From: Hormiphora californensis
Taxonomy: Eukaryota; Animalia; Ctenophora
Direction: 5' to 3'
Assembly: GCA_020137815.1 (NCBI GenBank)
Contig: CM035359.1
Location: 3,410,001 to 3,474,000, forward strand
DNA: 64,000 nucleotides
Shown: positions 1,810-63,067 of the stretch, piece by piece
Layout: the number at the start of each line of letters is the position of its first letter
Position numbering within the stretch: position 1 is the stretch's first letter
The notes under the pieces: model-generated
The model's database searches: none
What the model was told of the DNA's origin: nothing
Seen by the model: the letters and a program-made list of their open reading frames with translations, nothing else
Translations under genes and position numbers: made by a program

Positions 1810-3970
1810 GTAATAAAAGAAGCCACATGCATCTGGCCTAACAATGTCAATAATAGTATATATAAATTGTTTTTGCCTGACTGGCTACACGAAGAAAATC
1901 ACATAAAATACATGCAACAGTTAAAGACTAGTATGTATGGTACAGATCTGATGAAGAGCCATCGTTCTTGTTCCTTCCTCTGTAACCCCGAATAGAACAA
2001 GTTATGGAGCGGACCATTGAAAATGATAGACGAACACGGAGGTATCGAATACACTCCTGGTAGGTATAGCCAGTTTTCCGCGATTTCTTGGTTGCGAGTT
2101 GCTTCAAAGTTCTGCTGAACTCTTGACCAAGTCCACCGGTCGTTGACATAACGAGGGGAGTAAAAGAAGCTTTTTCCACCTCGAGAATGCGATGTAGATA
2201 GTTCTTCTTCTTCCCTTCCTCGTGCTTGATATACGTTTGAGGGATATCCTGAGTCTCATTAGACTGTGCCCTTGGGTTAAAAACCCTTACGTCAAAATAG
2301 GTGCAGTCCATTGGTCCCCAGAATCCCCTCGTTCGAATGTCAAGGCGAGCTCCATCCTCTGTAATGGTCCCAGGTGGTAGTTTTGCTCCTCTAACTTCCA
2401 GTAGGTGGGGTTCAGCCTTAGTGTCGTAGCACACTTTGTCCAGCTCCGAGGTTAGAAAGTCTCGAACGCAATCGTGTCTGACCGCAACAAATCCCCCGCG
2501 TTTGCATGACATGGAGTGATCGATGCTGTTTTCCTCCCCACAAACGCACTGTGTTGCTCTCGGCTGTCCCACTAGTGGGAGATCGTATCGTGCTGAGATT
2601 GAATCAAAGAACTCCTGGCGATTGAGTGTGAGCTTCAATGACTCTAGGGGTAGACAAGTGAGCCATGTTGATGCCCCTTTCTCGCTGAGTAGATCAAGGT
2701 TCCTCGCCTCTCTTGGCTTGATTGACTGAACGATTTTTTCCCTGCATTCCTTGTGATAATTAGCTTTGCCAGTTTTGATGCTGAGGGCTATGGCTTTCTC
2801 AATCTCAGGATTCGGTATGTATTCTATGTCTTGTTTCTGGATGGCCTTCTGAAGTTCTTCTGTCGCTTTCAGCGAGTTCTGGTACTCCAGGTCAGCCATG
2901 TGACAGGGGTTTTCGACACCCAGCCCTCCCATTCTCGTAGGAAGTGCCATTATGGATCGTAGCGTATCAGGAATGAATGGTTGTCCTGTGATAGCTGGGA
3001 GGAATTTCTCTCTAATTGCCTTCTCGATGGGCTCTAGTTCTGTAGCGATCCCTGGTGTTGTCCGCAGCAAGTAGTTCCACTTCTTACTCAACCCGATTGT
3101 GTAGGCTGAATAGGCTAGTTGGGGTTCGTTGCAGGCAATGTCGCTCAGTTGTTCTATCTCCTCGACCCATGTCTTCACTTCATTATTCACCCACTCCTTC
3201 ATTCCATCATCGCTCCCAATGAAGGAACCCAGGTAACGGTGACCAACAGTTGTTATGTTGACATCTGGAAACAGTTCCTTGGCTCTTTCCTCCTTGTCTT
3301 CTTTCACAATCAGCCAACTTTTCGAAGGCTCAGGGTAGTATCCAAAGCCTGGACCCTTCTCTTTCACCTTGCTCCACCACTTCTCGATAATGGCTAGAGT
3401 GCCTCCGCCACCTGCATCATCTGCATAGAGGATCTGAAAGAGTTCATCATCTAAAGAATTTTCAATGTTACGGAGAGAATTAGCTAATGGCATAAGGCCA
3501 CATGCATACATGGGCATGGCAGTGGTATCACCCTGTGTTGTTCCTTCTTTTGATAGTAGGGTGTCATGTGAATTTCCATCAGATATGAATAGTTTGGCTG
3601 GCAAGCCGTAAGTGTTAGATAAATACATGCTAAAATCACGACATAAATAATCAATATTGCTTAGAGCAATCTTTCGGTTTAAAGAATTAAAGGCATTGGA
3701 CGCGTCAATTAACAGTATACATTCACATTTATCATCATTAAATTTTTCTCTTAAAGCATGCACTGCAGCTTCAACACCACTCTTCAGTCCCCCACACAGT
3801 TGTATTGGGGCTGTTGCCTCTATAATGTCAGGTTTTAGGACCGTTACAACAACTTTCCCCACAAGCCTTCGAATCACTTCACCCACACCGATCGGCCTGA
3901 TACCTGCTGGCTTTTTCGATAAGGGAATCAGTCTGCTAGCAACGAATGCTTCAAGGTAAATGGGATCAGT
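1810..3970 (-). mobile_element. 5'-truncated CRE-clade (RT + restriction-like endonuclease) non-LTR retrotransposon
   Basis: The frame opens at ~3965 with LEAFVASRLIPLSKKPAGIRPIGVGEVIRR, has RT motifs LLIDASNAFN, QGD and YADD, a CxC...H..C zinc motif, and RHD and RLDI...FDVRV (PD-D-like RLE) motifs. Ends are approximate and no clear TSD was found. Confidence 0.85.
1928..3886 (-). CDS. Reverse transcriptase / RLE endonuclease ORF of the CRE-like element (N-terminally truncated)
   Basis: 652-aa uninterrupted ORF with YADD and a C-terminal zinc knuckle plus RLE motifs. Confidence 0.85.
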   Translation of the reverse strand: MGEVIRRLVGKVVVTVLKPDIIEATAPIQLCGGLKSGVEAAVHALREKFNDDKCECILLIDASNAFNSLNRKIALSNIDYLCRDFSMYLSNTYGLPAKLFISDGNSHDTLLSKEGTTQGDTTAMPMYACGLMPLANSLRNIENSLDDELFQILYADDAGGGGTLAIIEKWWSKVKEKGPGFGYYPEPSKSWLIVKEDKEERAKELFPDVNITTVGHRYLGSFIGSDDGMKEWVNNEVKTWVEEIEQLSDIACNEPQLAYSAYTIGLSKKWNYLLRTTPGIATELEPIEKAIREKFLPAITGQPFIPDTLRSIMALPTRMGGLGVENPCHMADLEYQNSLKATEELQKAIQKQDIEYIPNPEIEKAIALSIKTGKANYHKECREKIVQSIKPREARNLDLLSEKGASTWLTCLPLESLKLTLNRQEFFDSISARYDLPLVGQPRATQCVCGEENSIDHSMSCKRGGFVAVRHDCVRDFLTSELDKVCYDTKAEPHLLEVRGAKLPPGTITEDGARLDIRTRGFWGPMDCTYFDVRVFNPRAQSNETQDIPQTYIKHEEGKKKNYLHRILEVEKASFTPLVMSTTGGLGQEFSRTLKQLATKKSRKTGYTYQECIRYLRVRLSFSMVRSITCSIRGYRGRNKNDGSSSDLYHTY

Positions 3971-4347
3971 TTTTTCAGTTTGTCGTTTTTTTGGGAAACG
4001 TTAAAATTTTGGTGTTTCGAGTGTCAGCACTCACGTTTTTTAGGGTAGGACATAAAAGTAGGGTTAGGGCTGGGCTGGGGTTCAGGCTTGCGATTTCCTA
4101 TCAGACAACCTTTAAATTAGCCAAAACGGTGGAGTGGTTAGACCCATACCAGTGCAGGTTACTTTGCTTTTTTGGCGGCGTACGCCTGTAAACAGGCCTT
4201 AAACACCTAATAGCCCCTTGCCAGAATATGCATGAAGTTTTATTTTTGAATCCACTTTAAAAAATAAGCATGTTTTCAAATAACCTAACTTGTTTAGCAT
4301 GTACTGGCGCTAGTTTCTCGCTCTCCCATGCCGGTGGTCCTGTGTTC

Positions 4348-14363
<10,016 letters not shown>

Positions 14364-15743: not shown

Positions 15744-18700
15744 ATGTTTTGTCCTACCCCGAGGCTACCACAGGTAACCCCTGATTTTTTCCCTGCCCGG
15801 GTGAATGCCGAAGGCATTCACCCGGATGCCTTTTTACTTTGTAAAAAGGCATAGCAGGGTTTTTTTCAAACTTTCATCAACTACAACGTAAAACTATTTA
15901 TTGAGGCGGCATCCCCCCTCAATTGTTTCAGTCGTATGACCCTACTCTGAGGAAGCTGATAACAACAATGTCTGCAGCAGTAGTGCAAACTGAAAAGTCG
16001 GCTGACAAGAAGTCGAAAAAGGAGCCTGTGAAGACCGTGATACCTGAATTCCTGTTGGCGGAAGCACCTCCCCGCGCCAAAGCGGTCCTTGAGTTCTACA
16101 ACAAATTGGAATGCAAGGTGGACGCCCTGTTGAGCGAAAGTATCATCAAGATCAAGTCTAAGTTTGGTGCACCGTACATTGAAGAACTTGCGACCTACCT
16201 ATATCTCTGGACATTCGGCAAACAGAAAATGAGAAGGGCTACAGAAACATCCCCCTCTTAATCCACCGCTGTCTTCTGAAAGCCAGATCATATACCCCGA
16301 GTAAGTGTGGGGTCTGCTCGGAATATTACTGTGTCGAAAAGGACACTGTACCCGTTTTCACCTGTTGGATGTGTTTTCAGGGAAGCCACGACTGTGAAGG
16401 AGTGGCCAAAATCTTCTCCACCCTGTACACCATCACTCAGCCACTGACGGGATTTAACTGGACCTGCCACTCCTGTACCGAGAAGGGTAGTCTCGATCTA
16501 ATGTCGAGGATACCTGTTATCCCGGGGAAAGATGATCCCGTGGTAGTGCCAGTTGAAATTATCACCCCAGACGTTACTGAAGAAGCTGTAGCTGGCGAGG
16601 GCTTAAGCAGGGAATCATCTAAGGTCCCTTGTGCATTCCTGGCAGAAGGCTACTGCAGACACGGGATATCCGGTAAAAAGGAAGTGAATGGGGAAACCTG
16701 CCGTTTTCTCCACCGTAAAGTTTGCAGGAGATTTAGACTGTACGGATCTCATTCCCGCCATGGCTGTAAGTCGGGTTCAAAGTGCTCTAAACTCCACCCA
16801 AAACTATGTGAGGGCTCACAGCGGAGAATGAAGGAACGACAGTGCTTAAACCCTGATTGCCCGCATCTCCACCTAAAGGGTACACGAAGGAAAGAGGAAA
16901 ACCCTGAGAGGAAAGAACGTCAGGAAGTTGTTAGGACAACACGGCAACCTAACACTCACACCACTGACCAGAGAGAGAGAGTGCAGGATGAACAACTCCC
17001 TCTTAGCGGCTCACCATTGCGACCAGTTTCGCAGCAATACCCTGGACATCTACAATCGGGTTTTCTGAGCATTGTCTTGAAGGAGGTCAGGAATGCAAGA
17101 GAAGAGTCACTGAGGCAAGCGGACAGAATGGAAGAAATTCTCTCCCAGCTTGGCCCCACCCACAGCGAATCAATGCTGCACAACCAGCTGGCCCACCACT
17201 TACAAGCACACCCGCCGGTGCAGTACACCCTACCTACAGGTACCCTCACTCAAGGAGTACATCGTCAACTCCCGACCCAAATACTGCCCTCTCAAAGATT
17301 ATCATACTAAATGGGAGAAGTATTTCACCGGCTGCAGGGGGGAACACTCGGTGGAAACTCCCTTTCATCGAGGCTGTTTTGTTAAACAACCCAAACTCCC
17401 CGCCGACAGTTGCCCTTGCAATAACGGAGTCATGGTTGAAAAACTACATTGCAGATGCCCAAATCAAAATGCAAGGATACAGCACCTTCCGTTCTGACCG
17501 TCCTGACCGGAAAGGAGGAGGTTGTGTTTTGTACATCCGTGAGGACATCCCAATCAGCTACGCATACTCATTCAGTGACCGGGAATGCAGTCTGGTATTG
17601 GCTTTTAGTAAAGCTAAAAACATGTTGTTTTCATGTGTCTACCGTCCCCCCGACTCATCTGACCAGTCCTTCATCACAGTTATGAATGATCTCCAAGATA
17701 AAATTAATCTCCTGTCCAATGAAAGGAGCCCTGAAATGTTTATCATGGGCGATCTAAACTTGCCGTTGTTCAACTGGAAAGAAGAATCCCTGCCGTCAGC
17801 TGGCAGCTGCTGCTAACATAGCGGCTTATCAACGCACTGTGAACTTCATTGAGGAAAATTTCCTAACTCAGGTCGTAGACAAACCAACTAGAGGAAGTAA
17901 TACTCTGGATGTTATAATGACCAACTCACCCCAATACGTATCAACTGTGACAACCGAAGAGACAAAGATTTCTGACCACAGGATAGTTAACTGTACCCTG
18001 GTGATAAACCCCCTTATGAAGACAGCAGATACCATCAAAAAGTGGGACCACATGAGTTTCCGAGGGTTGGACATTCAGAAAGCCAACTTTGAAGACATGA
18101 ATGTAGACATTGCTTCTGTTGATTGGGACGAACTGCAGGCATTATGTGAGGAATCTGGAGACCCTGTTGGTGACAAATTCAAAGAACTTTTCATTCTAAC
18201 TGTTTTGCAAATCACCATCAAACACACACCTCAGAAGGTTCAGCGGAGGAAATTCAGCCCCCTGGAACCACTGAAAAGGAGAAGGCGGAAACTAAAAACA
18301 AGACTGGAAGCAATCTCTTCTGTCAATGTTAACATCTCCAAAATCGAAGCACTCGAAGACGAGCTCACAATACTTGAGGAGAAGATAAAACACTCTGTGG
18401 ATGAATCAATCGAGAAGAAGGAACACAGCGCTGTTGATACGATCAAGGTCAACCCACGATATTTCTTTTCCTACGCAAAACGACTATCAAAAGTTAAATC
18501 GAACATTGCCCCTCTCAAACGTGATGATGGAACACTCACCACAGACAACACTGAAAAAGCGGAACTCCTGCAAAAACAGTACTGCCGTGCTTTCAGTGAT
18601 CCAGACGGTGGAGACTTGCTGAAAAGTCTTTCTTGGGTTGAGGATAGCAGTGCGATTTTGGAGGATTTCACATTTACGTCTGATGACATTAAAGGAGCCC

Positions 18701-21700
18701 TCTCAGAACTTGACCCTGCTTCTGCCGGACCAGATGGTGACATCCCTGCTAAAATTCTCAGTGCTTGTAAAGCCACTCTTGCTGTACCACTCTTTCTTCT
18801 TTGGGAGCGGTCCTTCGAAGAAGGAATAACACCCCCAAACCTGAAAAAGCAGTACATCACACCAATCTTCAAGCGTGGTGACAAAACTCTTGCTGTTAAC
18901 TACCGCCCTGTTTCACTGACTTCTAACTTGCTAAAAACATTTGAACGAGTTGTACGAAACAAGTTGGTGGATCACCTTGAAAGTAACAATCTTCTACCAG
19001 ATAGTCAACACGGGTTTAGGAAGCAACGAAGCTGTCTCACACAGTTACTTGATCACATGGACGGAATCTTTCGAGAGCTAAACAGCGGGAACGAAGTCGA
19101 TGTAATCTATTTGGACTATTCCAAAGCCTTTGACCGTGTCAACCATGCTATTCTTCTTGCCAAGCTGGAAAAGCTAGGCATCAAAGGGAAAGTACTAAAT
19201 TGGATAAAAGACTTCCTTTCTGGTCGGTACCAAACAGTTACTGTTGACGGTGAAAAATCGAACTTCGAGCTGGTCAAAAGTGGAGTCCCTCAAGGGACCG
19301 TACTCGGACCAATCCTCTTTATCATCTACGTAGCTGATCTCCAAAGCCAAGTAATCCACAGCAAAATCAGAACCTTTGCGGATGATACCAAGCTCCAAAA
19401 GAGTGTCGACTCGGAAGAATCAGGAGCAGAAATGCAAGAGGATCTCCAGCGTGTGGTGGAGTGGTCTGCAGCCAACTGTATGACACTTCATGAGGACAAG
19501 TTTGAGGTTATTCAGTATACTCTGAACAGAACATCCCTTCTCAGAGAACTGCCTTTCACCCATGACCTTAGCTCATATGTGACTCCAGGTGGAAATGAAA
19601 TACAGCCAACGGATACAGTGAAAGACCTTGGCATCACTCTATCAAACAATGGCTCTTGGACAGACCATGTCATGAGGATCTCATCAGAAGCACGAAGGAT
19701 GGCCGCCTGGGCACTGAGAGCTTTTAAAGATAGGTCAGTAACCACTATGCTGACACTCTACAAGTCACTAATAAGGTGTAAAGTAGAATACTGCTCACCT
19801 TTATGGTCGCCCTACAAGATTGGTGACATCCAGGCGCTGGAGAGTATCCAGAGACAGTTTACCCGAAGGATCGAAGACATGGCACAACTTGACTATTGGG
19901 AACGGCTGAAAAAGCTTAGACTGATGTCATTACAACGACGGAGGGAGCGATACTCGATAATACAAATGTGGAAAATCCATAACGGTGCAGCCCCTAACAG
20001 CACGAATACCCGGTTTTACCATCATCAACGGCTCGGCATCCGAGCCGAAGTACCTACTCTTTACAGTGGAGCACAGAAGTCATTCTCAACAAAATACTTC
20101 CACTCTTTTACTGTAAGGGCCGCTCGGCTATGGAACACATTGCCGAAAGAGGTTAATACAGCAGCGACCTTAGATACGTTCAAGATCCTGCTGGGCCGTT
20201 GGCTGGACCACTTCCCTGACAATCCACCTGTGAAGGGTTATTCTACCCGGAACAACAATTCTATCATGGACTGGGTTTTGGAGGTTCGAGCTAAAGGGGG
20301 ATGCTGAAAAGACTGACACCGGTTACGATTCTGTAATAAAGTTTATTTATCAAGTTTATCAAGTTTATCAAGTTAGAATTCGAAATAACAATAAAGCAAA
20401 AGTTGAGATTCTCCATCCTTAGGTCAACTTTGAGGAGCTTGAGAGGTTGTAGGGTACCCATAAGAACACCAACACTGGACAATTTTGACTTCAACCTTTG
20501 AAATGTCATTAGTGATGAGAGACTATTTTTATATTATTTATCAATTTTTTAGTGTGTAGGCGTTTGATTAAGTTATTTTTCTGCACAGCCCACACAGGGA
20601 CCATATGATGACTTGATTCACACCTCACCGTGTCTAGTGGCTGCTCTGCACCGTTTCACCCCTGAGGTCCCTAGTGGGTTGTGTAGTATATGTTAGAATT
20701 CGAAAACGACATTTTGGTATACTAACTAATCGGTAGAGGGACATTTTTTGGTCACACTTTTGTCGCGAGGGGCAACGGTGTAGCAACTAGAGCCGCGCGC
20801 ACAGTGACGAGCTACTCCTTCATCAAACACCTCATTGACACAGTTTGATGGACGTGTGTGCGCACGCCACTCAATAAAACATGAAATGCTCTGCCACGCG
20901 TTTCGCGTGTTACATACATATTTTCATCTTGCGAGTCGAGTGTGAGATGTTAGATAAGTAGTTAAGTTGGAATGTCAAAAGCTGGTTAGCAAGTGTCATG
21001 TGATTGGGAGTTAACTACTCTAAGCTATGTGAGAAGTATACTGACAGCTAGATCGTATGCATCTCACATTACATTATGACCAAGCCCTGATCCTGTTGGC
21101 AGTGACAATGTGAAACGGTAGGGCAGGGAAACTCAGCATTATGAACACATAATGCAATAATTCTTGTTCTACTGAATACAAGGTTTACCACGATCCATAA
21201 ATTGGATTTGGAGTGAGCGAAGCTGATCAGAGTCCAGTGGCGTAGAAGTCAAAATTTACCAATCCGGTTTGAACCGGCAGAGATGATCTGTGGCCAAGAT
21301 CACAACCAAATTTTGAAAAGGGGAGCTCACAGAGAAAGGAATACACTTCAAGAACTATCTTAATTTCAAAGCATTCATAAAGAATGTTGATCTTCTCGGA
21401 TTCCTAAACCCGGAACCCGCGAACAATGCGAAATCAAAAAGATTTATGGAGACTGGAGTATGGTGAATTTCATGATTCCCAGGGGCAAATCCTCCATTGA
21501 TGAAGCCACCAGTTTAATCAGCCTTGAAAACTTTACCTGGCTGTAACTGCATTGTCCAGAAAGCTAACATCTGAAAAATTGGGCCAATCTCACTTTGAAG
21601 AATATTGATTCTTCTCACAAACAAGAATTATTTGCATTATGTATCCATAATGCTACGTTTCCCTGCCCTCTTCGATTTGCCATTCAACTCGCCATTAAGC

Positions 21701-30706: not shown

Positions 30707-54456
<23,750 letters not shown>

Positions 54457-55207
54457 TCTTTGATCCTCGGTTACATGACTGTTTCCTTCGACTATTATCG
54501 AAATTTAACGTGTTAGTAAACATAAATCATGACATTCGATCGTCTAGCTGATAAATAAAAACTGATTCACAGCGAAAACAACTGGGAGGCTCAGCCAGCC
54601 GCCCGCGGCAGGCCACAGACCCGGGCCCCATGGCGGCAGGCTATTTGTATTCTGAAGCAAAACGGGGTGCTTAAAACTGGAGTGTGTGAGCAGAGTAAAA
54701 AGACCCGCCACACAGACGGGGCGGGATGGATTTTGTGATTCCAATTTCCAAAATTTCGAAAAAAAAAATCAAAAATGCTAAACCAAAATTTTGCAAATCT
54801 GACTTTTTCTCCGGCCTAAATTTAAATCACGCCGCGCATTTGTACTCGCGCGCGCCATTTCGCAGTGTAGTTTGTAAAAGTTCGCGTGGACGTCCTGCAG
54901 AAGAGTCGAATCGTAACTTTTGTAAACAGATCCGTACCAGCCGTTCCTTGTGCTGTTTTATGAACAATACAAGCCGTTATTTCAGGTATTGCCAGCTCAT
55001 GGCAGAGGTCCTGTATGAATTTGAAACCCATTGGTGCATTTAAAGACGAAATTTGGCAGCTGAAAAGAAAAAAATGAATCAAGGTTTTTTAGTTCAAATT
55101 CAAAATGAAAATAAATATGTACATTCTCTCTCTTATCTCCCAATATGATATGAACACAGAAAAAAAGCTAATAACCACACTAATGTAAGTTCATGACATT
55201 TCTATCT

Positions 55208-58200
55208 CTAGGGTTTACATCTCTCCGCAGTCCTAGGGTAGAGACAGTTTTCTCTGATGTTGTTGGAGTTGAGGAGCCACATCAGGTACCTGCGAAAGGG
55301 TAGTGAGGTTTTAGAGGTACTAGTGATATGAGGTACTAGTGATATGAGGTAACTATCGAGATCAGTCGATAGAAAGGCAACAGGACCACTTTTAAGATTG
55401 CGATAGTGCGAGAAAGAGACAGAGAGAGGGAGGGCCAGGGGGTAACCGGTAAGTAACATACCGTTCGAGTCCAAGGCCGTATCCACCGTGAGGACAGGTA
55501 CCGTATTTCCTCTGGTCCACGTACCAGTAATAGTTTTCAGGGCTGATACCTGGATAGAGGGGGTGTTGGTCAGTGATCGGGGGAAGCTGTTTAGCTGGTC
55601 TGTGGACTGTGGAGAGGAATGGGACCTGAAGAAACTTTAGAAACATGTCATTTTCCATACGTACACAAAATCCAGGAGAATTGAATGACCAATTAACGGG
55701 GCCTCCAATTAACTACATAATAATTAATTACCTTCTCGTTTAAATCCAGCAGCCAACTCCTGCTCGTCGTATATCCTCATGCTACCTCCAATAATCTCTC
55801 CAACGTTAGGTAGGAGACAGTCCACACTCTCAGTCACTATGGGGTCTGCTTTATCCGGCTGGGGATTGGGGTGTCAGTCAGGGTCCAGAGAACTTAATTA
55901 TCATTTTCTCCCTTTTTCTCATTCTCTCTCTTTACTGACACATTTCTTTCCTTCTCCCTCTGTCTCTCTCGTTCCCTTGTTACCTGCATATAAAATGATT
56001 TCATGGCCTTGGGGAAGCGACACAGAAGAATGGGAACCCCTATCATATCCGTCATTTTCCGTTCAGGGGCTTCAGGGATGTCATCTCCAAACTCAAATGT
56101 CGTACCTGCAAAGACGTTGGTTAGGAGGGGAACTGTAGGGGTCAGGGGTTGATACAATGGCTTGTAAAAAAGGATTGGAATTGGAATTGATCTACCGAAT
56201 CGGTAGATGAGCTAGGTAAAATAACGGCCAGTAGAATTAAAATACTGCCACAAAATCTCTTACCATCCTCCTTCCTGATTCCATTTTCCCTGCAGTACTC
56301 CAGGGCGTCCCTATAATCCATCCTCTTGAACGGTTTCTGGGGGACTTTGAAGTTGGGGTTGAGTTCCCTAACCAAGTCCCCGTGTTTCGAGTTCATGATT
56401 CTCGTGGCAGTGTCCACAATGAGGTCCTCTAGGGTGTCCAGTAACTGTGGGGGGAAGGTGCGGGGTTAGAAAATAAATTAGACTAGGGCAGGGGGTATGC
56501 TAATAATATATAAAATCAGGAGGCTACATATAGAACGCACCCAGGTTTAATTTCTTACTTACATCGTCAAAAGTTATGAAAGGTAATTCACCCTCAATGT
56601 GGGTAAACTCAGAGAGATGCCGTCTAGTGTGGGAGCTTTCCGCCCTATAACTCTGTGCTATACAGTACACATCTTGAGGAGAGAGGATTGAGGGTTAAGG
56701 ACGGATTAGGTTATAGTACAAAAGTAGGAAGTTTCAATCAAATAGTTAATCAATTAACTAATTACTTTATTAATTAATTAGAACTTACTTCCGACAGCAG
56801 GTATACACGTTTCCAGATAGAGTTGAGAGGACTGAGTAAGGTATGCCTCATCCCCAAAGTAGTTGAGTTTGAAAAGTGTCGAACCACCCTCTACCTGACA
56901 CTGTACCAGCGTTGGTGGGGTAACCTGGAGAGGACAAACAACTCTGTTAATCTTATGTTCTAAACCATTTTGCGGTGAAACAGGGCAAGGGAGGACATAT
57001 TGTCGAATATAGTAACTTTGCAATTCGCATGATCATTGTTAAAAATACTTTCGCACACTCAAAAAGTAGAAAAGTAACAAAATCTCAAAACACCAATTAA
57101 AATACCTCAACGTAATCCTTGTCATAGTAATGATCCCTAAAGGCCTTGATTGTTGCATGTCGGACCTTCAGGACCTTGCTCATGTTCTCTCCCCTAATCC
57201 ACATATGCCTGTTGTGGTACATGACATCTAGGGGAGAAGGGGCTGTCAGTTATCAGAACAGAATATTTTTTTATTGGGTCGAACTATTTTGGGTGGGAAA
57301 CATTTATAGTATACCCTTGGATAACAACCAAACATAGATTTACACGGGTTTCAAATTGAACAACCTATATCAGTTTTCACTCTCTCTCCAATAGTTACCT
57401 GGGTTACTCTCCGTGTTGAGAAGATTATCAACACCCCCCGCTGGAGATCCACCCACTAGCTCCCAATAATCAGCCTTCAGTTCGTGTCCACCAGGAGCCT
57501 CCTTCCCTTCTGGAACGGCTGTTAGTGTTCCGAAGATGGCCACTGAGGACTCCTAAGGGGGATATATTAGAAGTTTTATATCCTAACTTTCCTTTATGTT
57601 TGCGGAGAGAGAGAGGGTCGAACAAGACAGGAGAGAGCTAGAGAAGATGATATGGGACAGGGAAATAGGAAGATGATAGTTCAAAAACAACTCACAGAAA
57701 TAGGAAATTGCCCCGGTAGCATACGATAATGTCTTTGAGCAATAATGCCTTTGGGGAGTAACAGCATAGATAATTGGGTAAAGGCAAAAGCGTCAAAACA
57801 CCGAAGGCAAAACTGACCCAAGGCATTATCGTACGTAATCATTGCCCCCCCCCCCCCCCCCAAGAAGATAATAATTGAAAGGGGGGCCCGTCACCTTTTT
57901 TTTGCCCATATTTGCCCATATGGGCAAAACTGAATTTTCAAAAATCGTGGGACTTTGGGCAAAAATGGGCAAAATGAAATTTTCAGTGTTATATGTCATT
58001 TTTTCAACTCTATAACTTGATTTAACTTATTCAAAGTGAAAGTGAACAGCCCTGATTTTGATATAACTCGGTCAGAATGGTATTTGGTGTCATATTAGAA
58101 GTCAAAAAAATTTTAGTGCTCAAATCCTAAGTTTAGGATTTTTTAGGTTTTTAGGTGTTTTGGCTTTCATGGGTTTCAGAAACGTCCTAGAACAAAATAA

Positions 58201-59079
58201 ACCCATAAAAGCCTAAAACCTTTAAAAAATTTAAAAAATCCTAAATTTACGATTTGACCACTAAACAATTTTTTGACTTCTAATGTGACACCAAAGACCA
58301 TTCTGACCGAGTTTTATCATAATCAGGACTGTTCTCTCTCACTTTAAAGAATTAAAATCAAGTTATAGAGTTGAAAAAACAACAAAAAACACTAAAAATT
58401 TCATTTTGCCCATTTTTGCCCACTTTTGCCCATTTTTGCCCATATGGGCAAAACCAAAATTCGCTGGGATTATGGGCAATGGGCAAAAAAAAAAAGTGTT
58501 GCCCCCCCCCCAATTGAAAACCTGAAAAACAACTTACAGTGGCCAATAGAAGTGCATCATAAGTTTTACACTGTGTATCGGTTAGCACGCACTGCAGGAA
58601 GCCCGTTCCATCTCTCAAGACTAGGAAGATCAGGTTCTTTCCTTGTCTTCGTAATCGATGTACCCAACCAAACACCTGAAATTAATTAATTAATTAGTCA
58701 ATTATACATGTGTATCTCAGTTATTTTGGTCATACCATTTTTCCCCGCACGGTGAAGGCATTCACCCGGATATGGATGCCTTTTGTAAAAAGGCATAGGG
58801 GTTTAGAATTCGACAATTTTGCATACTAGATGAATAGTAACTTTCTAGGAGTCAGTAAAAACCTTTAAAAAGTTATGGATACTCTGTAATACAGAGTCTG
58901 TATCTGTTATATACTTATTGTTAAATACTTTTTTTTGGAATCTTGAATCTAATTTTAATCTTGAATGGGTCTTGAATCTTCAGTAACTTTGTTCCGAGAG
59001 CCTCTACACATTACATACCTCAAATCACACTACATACATGCACGAGTGGAAGAGGGAGAGAGAGAGGGAGGGAGGGAGG

Positions 59080-59146
<67 letters not shown>

Positions 59147-60864
59147 CTAATGTTCCATCCCTCGATATAGATCTGGGAAAATCATCTCTTGCATGGCTGT
59201 ATATCCTTCACTTCCTCTGTTTTTAGCTCGACTATCCGACTCTTGATTTTGAATCTTTTGAAGCAAAGTTATTCGCTAAATTTCGTTCAAATGATGCCAC
59301 CACCACCACCAAAAAAGAAGCAGAAGATCAAGAAGCAGACACTTCCCCCTTCAAGACAAAAAGAGTACAGGAAGAGCTATGCTGCTCGTCGGAGGAAAGT
59401 AAAACTTGAAAATGAGCTGAAAAGTTTACACGAGGAACAAATGGAGGAGCGAAATGATATGATGCTAAGATTGGAAAAAGCGGAGGAAATGGTAGCGTTA
59501 CTGCAGGAAGAGATGGAGGTATTGAAAAGGGACAGTAGAGTGCTGAGAGAACTGGTTGCGAAATTAGGATTGTCCGTTAGATGTGATGCTATTGAAAACT
59601 AGCAAACTTAGTAGAATTGTTTTAGTGAATTGTAATATACTCGTGAGATCAATTGTGTAACGATTAATTTAGTATTACAACTTCAACTATATGCTATAGT
59701 TTACTAAATCTGTGTTATTTCTATCTTACCTTCACTCTTTGATCCCTCAGCTCCCCCAAACTGCTAATCTTGGCTTGTTTTGCAGTTGGTAGTGAGGGGT
59801 CTTCTGAGATAGTGATCGATTTACTGTCTTCCAAATTAGCAGCACGTTTCGCAGCCTCTTCCGCGTCTTTCTCAGCTTTTCCTTTAGACTTACTGATCTG
59901 TGGGAAAGATTGTGAGGAAAATAGAGGGAGAGCAAATATTTAGTTTAGTACCCAGCGGGGATTGTGTGGGATACCCTGGGAAAAAAGGGAGATCCAAATT
60001 CACAATTCTTTACCTCTCGGTTGTACACTTTAGTGAGCTTTTTCAGTTGAGCCTGTGAAATAACACTGAACTTCTCTCCTCCCTCTTCCTTTGAGTCAAC
60101 ATAAATCGTTGGGAAGGGCTCCTGGTGGGAGATATAACTTAACCAATTACGGAAACGAATCAGGTTCCGAACAACATAGCTGGGCGAGGAGGCGCTACCG
60201 CCATCTGAGGCGTTTCACCCCTCACGCGCACCTAAAAACACAGAGTCTAATGCCGGCAATAGCTAGTTGTCATAACTAGCGCGCGCTACATACTAGCAAT
60301 AGGGTTGTTCGCGCGACACGGCAGTCACCAACTCATCACACTCACACTGCAGTACATTTTATGTATCATGAATATCATGAATGAATATTGTACTCACTTT
60401 TGCCCAATGACGCATCGCTTGAAGGGGTGTCTTAAAAGGGTTATCAGCCGTCCCTTCTCCCTTATCATCACTACCCAGTTTGTCTGATGTGTATAAAGGC
60501 TGAACCTGGGGGAGAATCGTGGGATTTTAAAAACATTCCCCCAAAACCAATTCCACCCTCCCCTGACAACCCTATTTCATGATAACAGGTCCCCAAATTA
60601 TTTTCACCTCGTACCTCTGTGGCCATGGTCATGGTTCGTGCGATTGGTCGAACTACTGCAGTGGGTTTTGAAACTGGCGGCGGGCTCACAGGAGCTGCTG
60701 TTGGTATAGGACGGAGTACAGAGGGTGTGGTGGTTTGTATAGGACGGTAGGTTGCACTCTGTCTAAGAGGGGGAGGTATCAAGTACTAGCTGTACTTTAC
60801 ACACACACATGAGAAACACACATAACACGAGATCACACTAAGATGTAGAGGGTGAGAGAGAGAT

Positions 60865-60921
<57 letters not shown>

Positions 60922-61044
60922 TAGAGAGAGAGATAGAGATAGAGAGAGAGAGAGAGAGAGAGATAGAGAGAGAGATATCCAAGTTTTTCAAACTTACAGA
61001 TTTGAAGCAGTAACACGGTATGCTCTACTGACAAGTCTCAGCAT
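55208..61044 (-). CDS. NARS1: Asparagine--tRNA ligase, cytosolic type, with N-terminal mitochondrial-presequence extension
   Basis: Exons 60998-61044, 60615-60762, 60398-60505, 60014-60121, 59730-59897, 58538-58675, 57399-57552, 57106-57227, 56789-56924, 56563-56672, 56264-56444, 55984-56105, 55732-55858, 55462-55549, 55208-55289, phase-consistent. Eukaryote-specific N-extension ([12 protein letters not shown]...[14 protein letters not shown]), [55 protein letters not shown]. Confidence 0.93.
57881..58511. mobile_element. Non-autonomous element with G/C-run termini and 8-bp TSD
   Basis: TSD aattgaaa at 57873-57880 and 58512-58519; long imperfect internal inverted repeats with tttgccca subrepeats. 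Confidence 0.75.
59291..59602 (+). CDS. Small basic/coiled-coil (bZIP-like) protein, 103 aa, nested antisense in a NARS1 intron
   Basis: [12 protein letters not shown]-like stretch, [17 protein letters not shown] basic region and heptad-spaced L/M. An upstream acceptor ctctgtttttag ends at 59226. Confidence 0.55.
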   Translation: MMPPPPPKKKQKIKKQTLPPSRQKEYRKSYAARRRKVKLENELKSLHEEQMEERNDMMLRLEKAEEMVALLQEEMEVLKRDSRVLRELVAKLGLSVRCDAIEN

Positions 61045-61524
61045 ACATCACTATCCAGTGCTAAACAAAACAGAAAACCAGTTAGTATTTAGATCTCACC
61101 AAATAAAATGTGCTTTACAAATCACACACAAGTGTGATCAAAATCACACAAATCACACTGATCACACACACACACACACACACAGGAAACACCCGATATA
61201 CTTTCGTTTTGAGCGCCCTTTCAGTCGCCAGGCCCGTGTCATTCAATTGAAAACTGTCTTAAATTTGGCTGAGAAAAGTAAAAGAATTGATGTTGAATAT
61301 TTTACAAAAAGAGAAAGACAAAACACACAAGAGCTCTTAGAACATGCGTAATACTTTTTCAACATTGTTAATAAATAAACTAGCACAAAGCACTCTCTCA
61401 TATAACATTGAACTGTTTATTCTGTTCTCACTCTTTCTAGTTAACTTGTTCCTCTTTGCCACACCCCTCCTCCCTCTCATATTGCCTTGCTCGACCCCCT
61501 TGTAAAGGAGGATTAGAACAACTC

Positions 61525-63067
61525 TCATGTCGCCGCTTCTTTGTTCCACCTCGATCGAATGACAATGTACAGCAGTTGCACAAAAAGTCCGGCAAACAAA
61601 AGTAACAGGAAGTTTCGTGTTGTGTGTGGAGATGAGGGTAGTAGGTTCTGGACTAACTTCTTAGGACCTTCCGAGAATACCTGAGTGAGTAGAGGTTGTT
61701 AGTTAGATCTGTCAAACCGAGAGAGGAAGGAGTAATATTAATCGTTTTATATTGGCCTGGGTACCGGGGAGAGAGATGTGAAACTGCACTGACAATAACA
61801 AAGTTATGACGTTGCTTCCTACCAACTTCTAACTCTCTTTATCCCTATCTCTCCTCTCTTTTTATCTCCCTATCTCTCTTTACTTACTATTCGGTTAGGA
61901 TTGCTGTATGTAGAAGGTAGTTTCATGGTGGACCCTACTTCCAATACTTCACACTTCATGTAGTGTTTCCCAGTCTCCGTTATCCTAACTGCAGAGGGAA
62001 GTTAGTATCACGTCATTCGTCCAATATGAACTGATATTATCATGTCAGTAGCAATTGTCTTACAAAAGACGGCCCTCTCCGAATCGTGCGCGACATCACA
62101 GTCATGTGTTATCACAAATCAGGTTGTGTTCAGAACCAGAATATTCCGTATCGTAAAAAAAAGAGAAAGGGATCGGTGGAAGAATGAATTATTGAATGAG
62201 CTAAAAAAGGTATCGGTGGAAGAATGAATTATTGAATGAGCTAACTCCTTCCTCACCTGTCAGGGTGGATCCCATGTAAGATTCATCCTTAGGCACCAAC
62301 ACCTGCTCATAAAACTTGTTATGACCCACGTAGTGCTCTCCATCGGTAGCTAGCTCAGTCACTAACACTGTTTCTACACTGCCTGAGATATAGGATCATA
62401 GTGTGCAGTGTTGCCTTTCTAAGACCCATACAAAAAGGCTACGAAGTCTGATCAATACATTTGTTCAACAGGATATATTTTTAATATAACCTACCAATTT
62501 TCCCTTTATAAGGGAACTGCTTCTGGAAGATCTCGGTGGCTCGTTTGGTCCTCAATTTCACCTGGTCAGCGGGTATCCTTTTCATCCTTGCTGCTGGTGT
62601 TCCGGGACGGGGAAAGAACTGGTTGATGAAGAGGGAGGGAAACTGGTACCGGTCTATCAGGGCTAGTGTCTCGTTGAAGTCTTCCTGTAGGGTGGGACGT
62701 GGGTGGTTACTGGTTAGTAGGGTGGGACGTGGGAGGTTAGTAGGGTGGGACGTGGGTGGTTAGTAGGGTGGGACGTAGGTGGTTAGTAGGGTGGGACGTG
62801 GGTGGTTAATAGTGGTTAGTAGTCAGAAGGGTGGTTAGTTGCCCGGTAAATCGGGGCAAATACAGTAAATTTCCTATGCCAGGGGGCGTTCATCCTCCCG
62901 GTAAATCAGGGGGTTCGACTGTAGTACCTCAGTCTCAGTTGGAAATCCGCAGATAATATCGGTTGCTATGGTAACACCGGGTACGTGTTCCCGGAGATAA
63001 TCAACTACTTTCCTAAACTCCCCACATGTGTACTCTCTCTTCATATCCTCCAGGACGTTATCACTGG
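61525..63067 (-). CDS. CDKAL1: Threonylcarbamoyladenosine tRNA methylthiotransferase (3' exons; gene continues beyond the window)
   Basis: Exons 62928-63067, 62495-62684, 62257-62382, 61888-61988, 61525-61680. Motifs [61 protein letters not shown], and C-terminal TM anchor [17 protein letters not shown]. Confidence 0.92.
62688..62822. repeat. 22-bp tandem repeat (tagggtgggacgtgggtggttag)
   Basis: About 5 units are visible. Confidence 0.85.

Follow-up and report, generated by a model that had tools for sequence, protein, structure and literature searches.

A cytosolic-type asparaginyl-tRNA synthetase gene in a ctenophore with a predicted mitochondrial presequence and a probable choice between two start codons

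Background

Ctenophores are reported to have lost all of their mitochondrial tRNAs and all but two of their mitochondrial aminoacyl-tRNA synthetases (PMC4558845, accessible portion), and 'asparaginyl-tRNA aminoacylation' is enriched among the mitochondrial orthogroups missing from Mnemiopsis (10.1101/2023.08.23.554511, accessible portion). The locus analysed here raises the question of whether one gene for a cytosolic-type asparaginyl-tRNA synthetase (AsnRS) provides the enzyme of both compartments, and by which mechanism. Import of cytosolic synthetases into ctenophore mitochondria is assumed or discussed in the accessible portions of both sources, and neither portion identifies a ctenophore cytosolic synthetase that has a presequence or two start codons; in that of PMC4558845 the word 'targeting' occurs 0 times. 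Whether the charging enzymes or ready-charged tRNAs are imported in ctenophores is a point that the accessible literature assumes rather than shows. Our search for a published presequence on a ctenophore cytosolic synthetase found none, and Pett 2011, Haen 2010 or supplements might hold a prediction.

The window is a stretch of 64,000 nucleotides from Hormiphora californensis (contig CM035359.1, positions 3,410,001 to 3,474,000, forward strand), and all coordinates below are positions within it. An earlier note on this DNA had proposed that spliced-leader (SL) addition at 61060 yields a mitochondrial AsnRS isoform carrying a hidden presequence, and that SL addition at 60762, or else leaky scanning or reinitiation, yields the cytosolic one.

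Results

A cytosolic-type AsnRS of ctenophore affinity

The AsnRS gene lies on the minus strand and has 15 exons between 61044 and 55208, with GT-AG at every intron; it encodes an open protein of 612 aa (Table 1). Every one of the 14 introns of the model is present as a joint in RNA contigs, with a few displaced by 1-3 bases. In the Pfam search the cytosolic-specific AsnRS_N domain (PF20917) was above cut-off on exons 4 and 5 and the class II core (PF00152) on exon 9; P0121 and P0136 each possess AsnRS_N, the OB fold and the class II core (3/3 domains), and the top PDB match of P0121 is the cytoplasmic AsnRS 8tc8 (E = 2.6e-254). Domains and best structural match support the cytosolic type assigned earlier to this enzyme. 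The window protein shares 74-76% identity with its three top database matches and 62-67% with other cytoplasmic AsnRSs among the best 40 hits. Named proteins of Mnemiopsis leidyi and Bolinopsis microptera (Ctenophora) sit in one of the three best-matching clusters, and in a tree of 21 rows, composed without a NARS2 row, the window AsnRS groups with the 9 rows of the three clusters (support 100/100). From this tree position we infer that clusters 2 and 3 are ctenophore. A homologue search with exon 11 gave 13 candidates and no homologue, and the Pfam scan of 145 of the 735 candidate frames outside the AsnRS gene showed no second synthetase.

Table 1. Features around the 5' end of the AsnRS gene (window coordinates)
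Feature	Position	Strand	Remarks
Candidate exon 0 (tentative)	61202..61242	-	ATG at 61242, 41 nt, then GTATAT
T-rich acceptor before exon 1, likely SL (trans-splice) site	61061..61085	-	judged from relative P0139
Exon 1	60998..61060	-	16 nt of 5' leader and first 15 2/3 codons of predicted presequence
7-codon uORF	61025..61048	-	overlaps first start (ATGTATG)
First in-frame AUG (predicted mitochondrial form)	61042..61044	-	context TGT-ATG-C
Intron 1	60763..60997	-	235 nt, phase 2, (CT)n tract, GT..AG; joint in X2
Exon 2	60615..60762	-	Pro/Thr/Ser-rich rest of extension and internal starts; covered by X2, X3 and X8 contigs
Internal in-frame AUGs 60632 and 60626 (predicted cytosolic starts)	60624..60632	-	ACC-ATG-A, ACC-ATG-G
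Exons 3-15	55208..60505	-	AsnRS_N (UNE-N), anticodon OB fold, class II catalytic domain; stop 55210-55208

Several other features were observed in the window. Intron 6 of the AsnRS gene seems, on inspection by eye, to hold a long imperfect inverted repeat (57880-58500; fold-back or MITE-like). Four further regions (1931-4000, minus strand; 17007-20304, 6513-14011 and 40836-41477, plus strand) comprise two reverse-transcriptase frames, one of them adjoining an endonuclease frame, exons with PHD and MOZ/SAS acetyltransferase domains and a frame of a rhodopsin-family receptor. An upstream gene on the same strand (61310-63065), tentatively labelled CDKAL1-like, shows weak Radical_SAM (E = 0.017) and TRAM (E = 0.049) matches, both below cut-off. 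A transcript contig of this gene from X2 extends to 61310, about 250 nt from the exon-1 acceptor of AsnRS, an operon-like spacing; operons are not reported in ctenophores (PMC7986045).

A basic N-terminal extension conserved in kind

The 59-residue extension of the long form contains 8 K+R, 14 S/T and 0 D/E, so the Arg/Ser/Thr-rich and acid-free character that it had been given is confirmed by counting. The probability that 59 residues lack D/E is 0.016 for random window frames and drops to 9e-5 if the composition of the core is assumed. Relatives were taken from 24 cluster members, comprising 14 full-length proteins, one partial protein (P0139), two starting inside or after the extension and seven fragments without the region. 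All 14 full-length relatives possess the extension, the named Mnemiopsis and Bolinopsis proteins included, and so does P0139. Each of the 13 relatives analysed has an extension of 39-90 aa with 7-14 K+R and 0-2 D/E, followed by two in-frame Mets that stand between it and the conserved core (13/13); the fourteenth, P0138, also has an extension. Only Bolinopsis isoform X1 shows an extra Met within the extension (residue 8) among these 13. The extension therefore appears conserved in kind, not in sequence, together with the internal Met in the full-length relatives, as the earlier reading would have it. In other AsnRSs the core motif lies at most 30 residues from the start in 73 of 76 cases and at most 37 in the remaining three, a further 13 of the 89 having no match to the motif. 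The decapod cytosolic AsnRS isoforms P0144 and P0150 (654-661 aa) are about 100 residues longer, and P0144 carries a GST_C/Arc1p-like insert inside its N-terminal domain.

A crude presequence rule (at least 3 Arg and at most one acid in 30 residues, with a moment of 0.5 or more), which was devised after the sequences had been seen, is passed by the window and 9 of the 13 relatives, failed by the other 4, and passed by 0 of 88 other AsnRSs; among representatives at 50% identity it is passed by 2 of 99. One AsnRS representative of 1058 aa, P0186, has a presequence-like start and is possibly an independent case elsewhere. The hydrophobic moment is 0.85 in the window, 0.80-0.85 for cluster 3 and the window together and 0.53-0.83 across the relatives, most of which have 0.53-0.69; N-termini of other AsnRSs have a median of 0.42 and a 95th percentile of 0.51, and core stretches have a 95th percentile of 0.70, exceeded only by the window and cluster 3. 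Among the differences listed between the window and the X2 contigs, 31 of 31 in the core leave the residue unaltered. In the extension, 2 of 3 replace a residue, and none introduces a stop, a frameshift or an additional ATG; the listing is incomplete, as 28 rows and three differences in exons 1-2 fall outside it. Such a pattern is usual for presequences. Residues 1-74 of P0121 retrieved nothing usable in the Atlas feature search. As judged from its sequence, the 59-residue extension is likely to be a mitochondrial presequence. It is not 'hidden', as had been claimed, since the long start is already annotated as the N-terminus of the NCBI proteins of Mnemiopsis and Bolinopsis; public gene models with this start only would miss the cytosolic form.

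Two in-frame starts and an upstream open reading frame

The spliced mRNA has two in-frame AUGs, and the interval separating them is free of AUG. Exon 2 had been described as free of AUG until 60632 and 60626, which proves correct and holds also for the part of exon 1 after 61044. No ATG in any frame occurs between the starts in 3 of 3 DNA sequences (the window, L001, and L002 for exon 2 only), over inter-start lengths of 174, 114 and 223 nt with shuffle chances of 0.17, 0.18 and 0.046, respectively. The out-of-frame upstream AUG noticed 4 nt before the first AUG is likewise real (ATG at 61048), and the stop of its uORF lies 157 nt 5' of the internal start in the spliced mRNA. In L001, which represents another species, an acceptor-like AG is directly followed by ATGTATG (270-276), and the uORF has 3 codons instead of the 7 in the window. 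Both species with readable exon-1 DNA (2/2) have ATGTATG at the first start, an arrangement that is rare, with 12 occurrences among 2079 window ATGs. A metagenome pattern scan yielded two loci only. The upstream AUG is known from two species only, and the junction of exons 1 and 2 from one contig of a relative, which calls for caution.

The first AUG is preceded by T at -3 in both the window and L001 (2/2). Around the last internal AUG, the window, L001 and L002 all carry A at -3 and G at +4 (3/3). By the vertebrate Kozak rule, which may not be the ctenophore consensus, the context of the first AUG is weak. Short uORFs may allow reinitiation. The exon-1 start is retained in 12 of the 14 Logan/JGI proteins that reach this region, a count that is biased, as the longest path tends to be preferred in assembly and gene calling.

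The junction of exons 1 and 2 and the probable addition of a spliced leader

The coding part of exon 1 (61044-60998) measures 47 nt and ends at a GTAAGT donor, and exon 2 measures 148 nt between a TTAG acceptor and a GTACGA donor. Splicing of these two segments in frame gives the peptide that had been read from the sequence, and the 60998/60762 joint itself is seen in one RNA contig of the metatranscriptome X2 (711 nt, depth 6.09, 61 letters on the short, exon-1 side). Around the junction, 4 of 150 and 2 of 61 letters of this contig disagree with the window (about 3%), so that it stems from a related population or species and not from the same animal. Seven distinct RNA runs were aligned, of which X2 alone covers exon 1, with X1, X3, X4 and X8 covering other exons; X5 and X6 yielded no aligned contig, and such gaps carry no weight as evidence. 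L002 has a phase-2 acceptor at approximately the position of the intron 1 acceptor, and its first 211 positions, which are intron-like, include an in-frame ATG at 195. Second AG acceptors are found 4 nt into exon 2 (60758-60762) and 10 nt into exon 1 (61050-61060), both on the minus strand; use of the former would shift the long frame and leave the internal start alone.

Ctenophores trans-splice at least 56% of their mRNAs, with a spliced leader that ends in TTTGAG (PMC8527503). The acceptor AG before exon 1 ends at 61061, and 12 of the 17 positions of its tract are T, as compared with 2-9 in 14 internal acceptors. P0139 agrees with the L001 protein at each of residues 1-461, yet it starts with L-R-C-M where the unspliced L001 reads I-R-C-M. 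A leader ending in TTTGAG would encode Leu-Arg at this place, so that P0139 supports a leader at the exon-1 acceptor. It is also possible that this L-R derives from another upstream exon with the same ending. Two other JGI proteins start at GTG and TTG codons, written V and L. SL addition at 61060 as proposed earlier is hence supported indirectly, and in a relative only, by the comparison of P0139 with L001. The published leader motif has no exact match in L001, L002 or the window, and the two matches with two mismatches in the window are at the level of chance. The X2 contig stops at 61058, two bases short of the proposed acceptor, and has no leader letters. An attempt to read the 2086-2087 nt contigs of cluster 3 as starting at the L001 acceptor was set aside; it requires equal 3' ends.

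The acceptor at 60762 is C-rich, resembles the other internal (cis) acceptors and has a cognate cis donor. No leader is seen there in the RNA contigs, and the X2 contig runs through the junction, contigs being informative on presence and not on absence. A downstream MFS-type gene on the minus strand (weak MFS_1 match) has an apparent non-coding first exon at 54437-54547, and the acceptor of this exon is T-rich (10 T and 1 C in 17 positions), in contrast to the internal ones examined. T-rich acceptors may mark trans-splice sites in this species.

A candidate exon upstream of exon 1

The Bolinopsis RefSeq isoform X1 has different first 24 residues that are joined at exon 2 (also residues 1-24 of P0122). 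Among 4924 stop-free segments of the window, the best match to this N-terminus is the stretch at the ATG at 61242, MTRAWRLKGRSKR, with a score of 38 that was reached by 9 of 5000 shuffles. The phase of its GT fits exon 2, and a transcript without exon 1 would read in frame from this candidate exon 0 into exon 2; in a transcript that includes exon 1, the frame of exon 0 would meet two stops just ahead of the first AUG. Its donor is the best of the 27 GTs in 61310-61062 and scores 6.0, compared with 7.3-11.8 for 14 real donors. No RNA joint for exon 0 is seen in the seven runs aligned, and the 5' parts of L001 and L002 show no match to the X1 N-terminus (scores 19 and 16). Going by sequence features, exon 0 could specify a third isoform, or the stretch may have been conserved as a uORF or as part of a promoter.

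Discussion

Probable start-codon choice on one mRNA and its alternatives

The best mechanism for this locus seems to be one mRNA giving a long mitochondrial and a short cytosolic AsnRS by start-codon choice, to which we assign a probability of about 0.62. A spliced leader would be joined at 61060; a minority of ribosomes would begin at 61044, with its weak AUG, to give the imported form, and most would start at 60632 or 60626, either by scanning past 61044 or by reinitiating after translation of the 7-codon uORF that opens at 61048. The imported long form would charge imported cytosolic tRNA-Asn, replacing the mitochondrial AsnRS reported lost in the phylum. Leaky scanning or reinitiation, which the earlier note kept as a fallback, fits better than SL addition at 60762. 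The latter would make a trans-splicing switch as in Trypanosoma IleRS, with a mitochondrial long form and a cytosolic form from a leader at 60762. It would suit the prevalence of trans-splicing in ctenophores and the lack of an AUG in exon 2 before the internal start. The otherwise spliced, Bolinopsis-like L002 still has an intron-like stretch of 211 nt ahead of exon 2, suggesting that intron 1 may splice slowly or serve as an outron and that there is room for a minor route. However, the 60762 acceptor has its own donor and a cis-like C-rich tract, X2 shows no loose end there (contigs revealing presence, not absence), L001, L002 and the window are devoid of the leader motif, and the conserved upstream AUG is left unexplained. 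The short variant is 3-4 times commoner in Trypanosoma, yet exon 1 is present in 12 of 14 assembled relatives here. We regard such a switch as unlikely. A little less likely still is a cassette arrangement like those of human LysRS and zebrafish HisRS, in which exon 0 would be joined either to exon 1, giving stops followed by the mitochondrial AUG, or to exon 2, giving a different basic N-terminus. The frames of exon 0 toward both exons, the similarity of its peptide to the alternative N-terminus of Bolinopsis X1 and the layout described for LysRS and HisRS (PMC7600831, in excerpt) agree with this arrangement, but its joint is absent from the seven runs aligned, its donor scores below each of the 14 real ones, and the 5' parts of L001 and L002 lack the peptide. 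Moreover, the form that skips exon 1 retains the basic, acid-free stretch of exon 2, and isoform X1 passes the crude presequence rule, so that the skipped form need not be cytosolic.

Two further explanations do without a second isoform or without import of the enzyme, and both appear improbable. A single long protein could be divided between the compartments by weak import or processing, with the internal Mets as relics of the ancestral start; this is a known route for synthetases (PMC7600831, in excerpt) and the long start is the one used by public gene models, but all relatives have preserved the internal Mets although the length and sequence of the extension have diverged, and no AUG occurs between the starts. 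Alternatively, the extension might be a disordered linker or an RNA-binding or nuclear tail instead of an import signal, with tRNA-Asn imported already charged, as described for Toxoplasma (PMC3273800, in excerpt). The lack of a usable hit in the feature search for the extension would be compatible with such a tail; however, the extension is lineage-restricted, acid-free, basic and placed ahead of a retained start, in a phylum reported to be without the mitochondrial enzyme. Taking start-codon choice, the trans-splicing switch, the exon 0 cassette and weak import together, the long form is likely to be mitochondrial. Start-codon choice might also be part of a wider picture, for which the odds seem rather poor, in which cytosolic synthetases were retargeted wholesale after the loss of all mitochondrial tRNAs and nearly all mitochondrial synthetases, a conserved cassette of leader, upstream AUG and AUG (ATGTATG immediately after the leader) sets the cytosol-to-mitochondrion ratio and a conserved basic peptide of exon 0 gives a third isoform.

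The presequence-like AsnRS leader in several ctenophore lineages makes the question of enzyme import testable and leads one to expect this layout on the other cytosolic synthetases as well.

Comparison with known dual-targeting systems

The class of mechanism is known, and the ctenophore case, expected in outline by specialists, is apparently undescribed. The phrase 'convergent solution in an animal' used for it earlier overstates the novelty, because dual targeting of a synthetase from two starts has already been published for human GARS1 and C. elegans tars-1. By analogy, the predicted layout is closer to these two than to the alternative trans-splicing of trypanosomes. The comparisons that follow rest on the accessible portions of the sources cited. 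In human GARS1, a weak first AUG of one gene adds the presequence and a downstream AUG gives the cytosolic form (PMC12718117), with a uORF that favours the cytosolic form in the model of Alexandrova 2015 as cited in PMC13084160 and PMC7600831. However, dual targeting of GlyRS is described as conserved from yeast to humans and serves a mitochondrion-encoded tRNA (PMC12718117), whereas the ctenophore AsnRS, an enzyme that is normally cytosol-only, would be newly retargeted in a phylum without mitochondrial tRNA genes. C. elegans tars-1 likewise has two AUGs on one mRNA, a presequence of 41 aa and a short uORF across the first AUG; it differs in being a ThrRS that charges a mitochondrial tRNA and in having been shown experimentally, and its uORF had little effect in human cells (PMC10196762).

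The IleRS of Trypanosoma brucei resembles the present case in that a single cytosolic-type gene serves both compartments in a trans-splicing organism, and a similar scheme has been predicted there for AsnRS (PMC3273800). It differs in its two trans-splice acceptors and in the dominance of the short mRNA (3-4x; PMC3273800), whereas the second acceptor of the ctenophore AsnRS is a cis acceptor at which the contigs show no leader. The Sileneae offer a parallel in which the loss of tRNA genes was followed by the gain of transit peptides on cytosolic synthetases; these are plants, however, in which the cytosolic AsnRS was not retargeted and organellar enzymes were kept (10.1101/2022.01.27.478071). 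If our reading is true, the ctenophore gene would provide a case of AsnRS retargeting, which is absent from this best-studied plant parallel.
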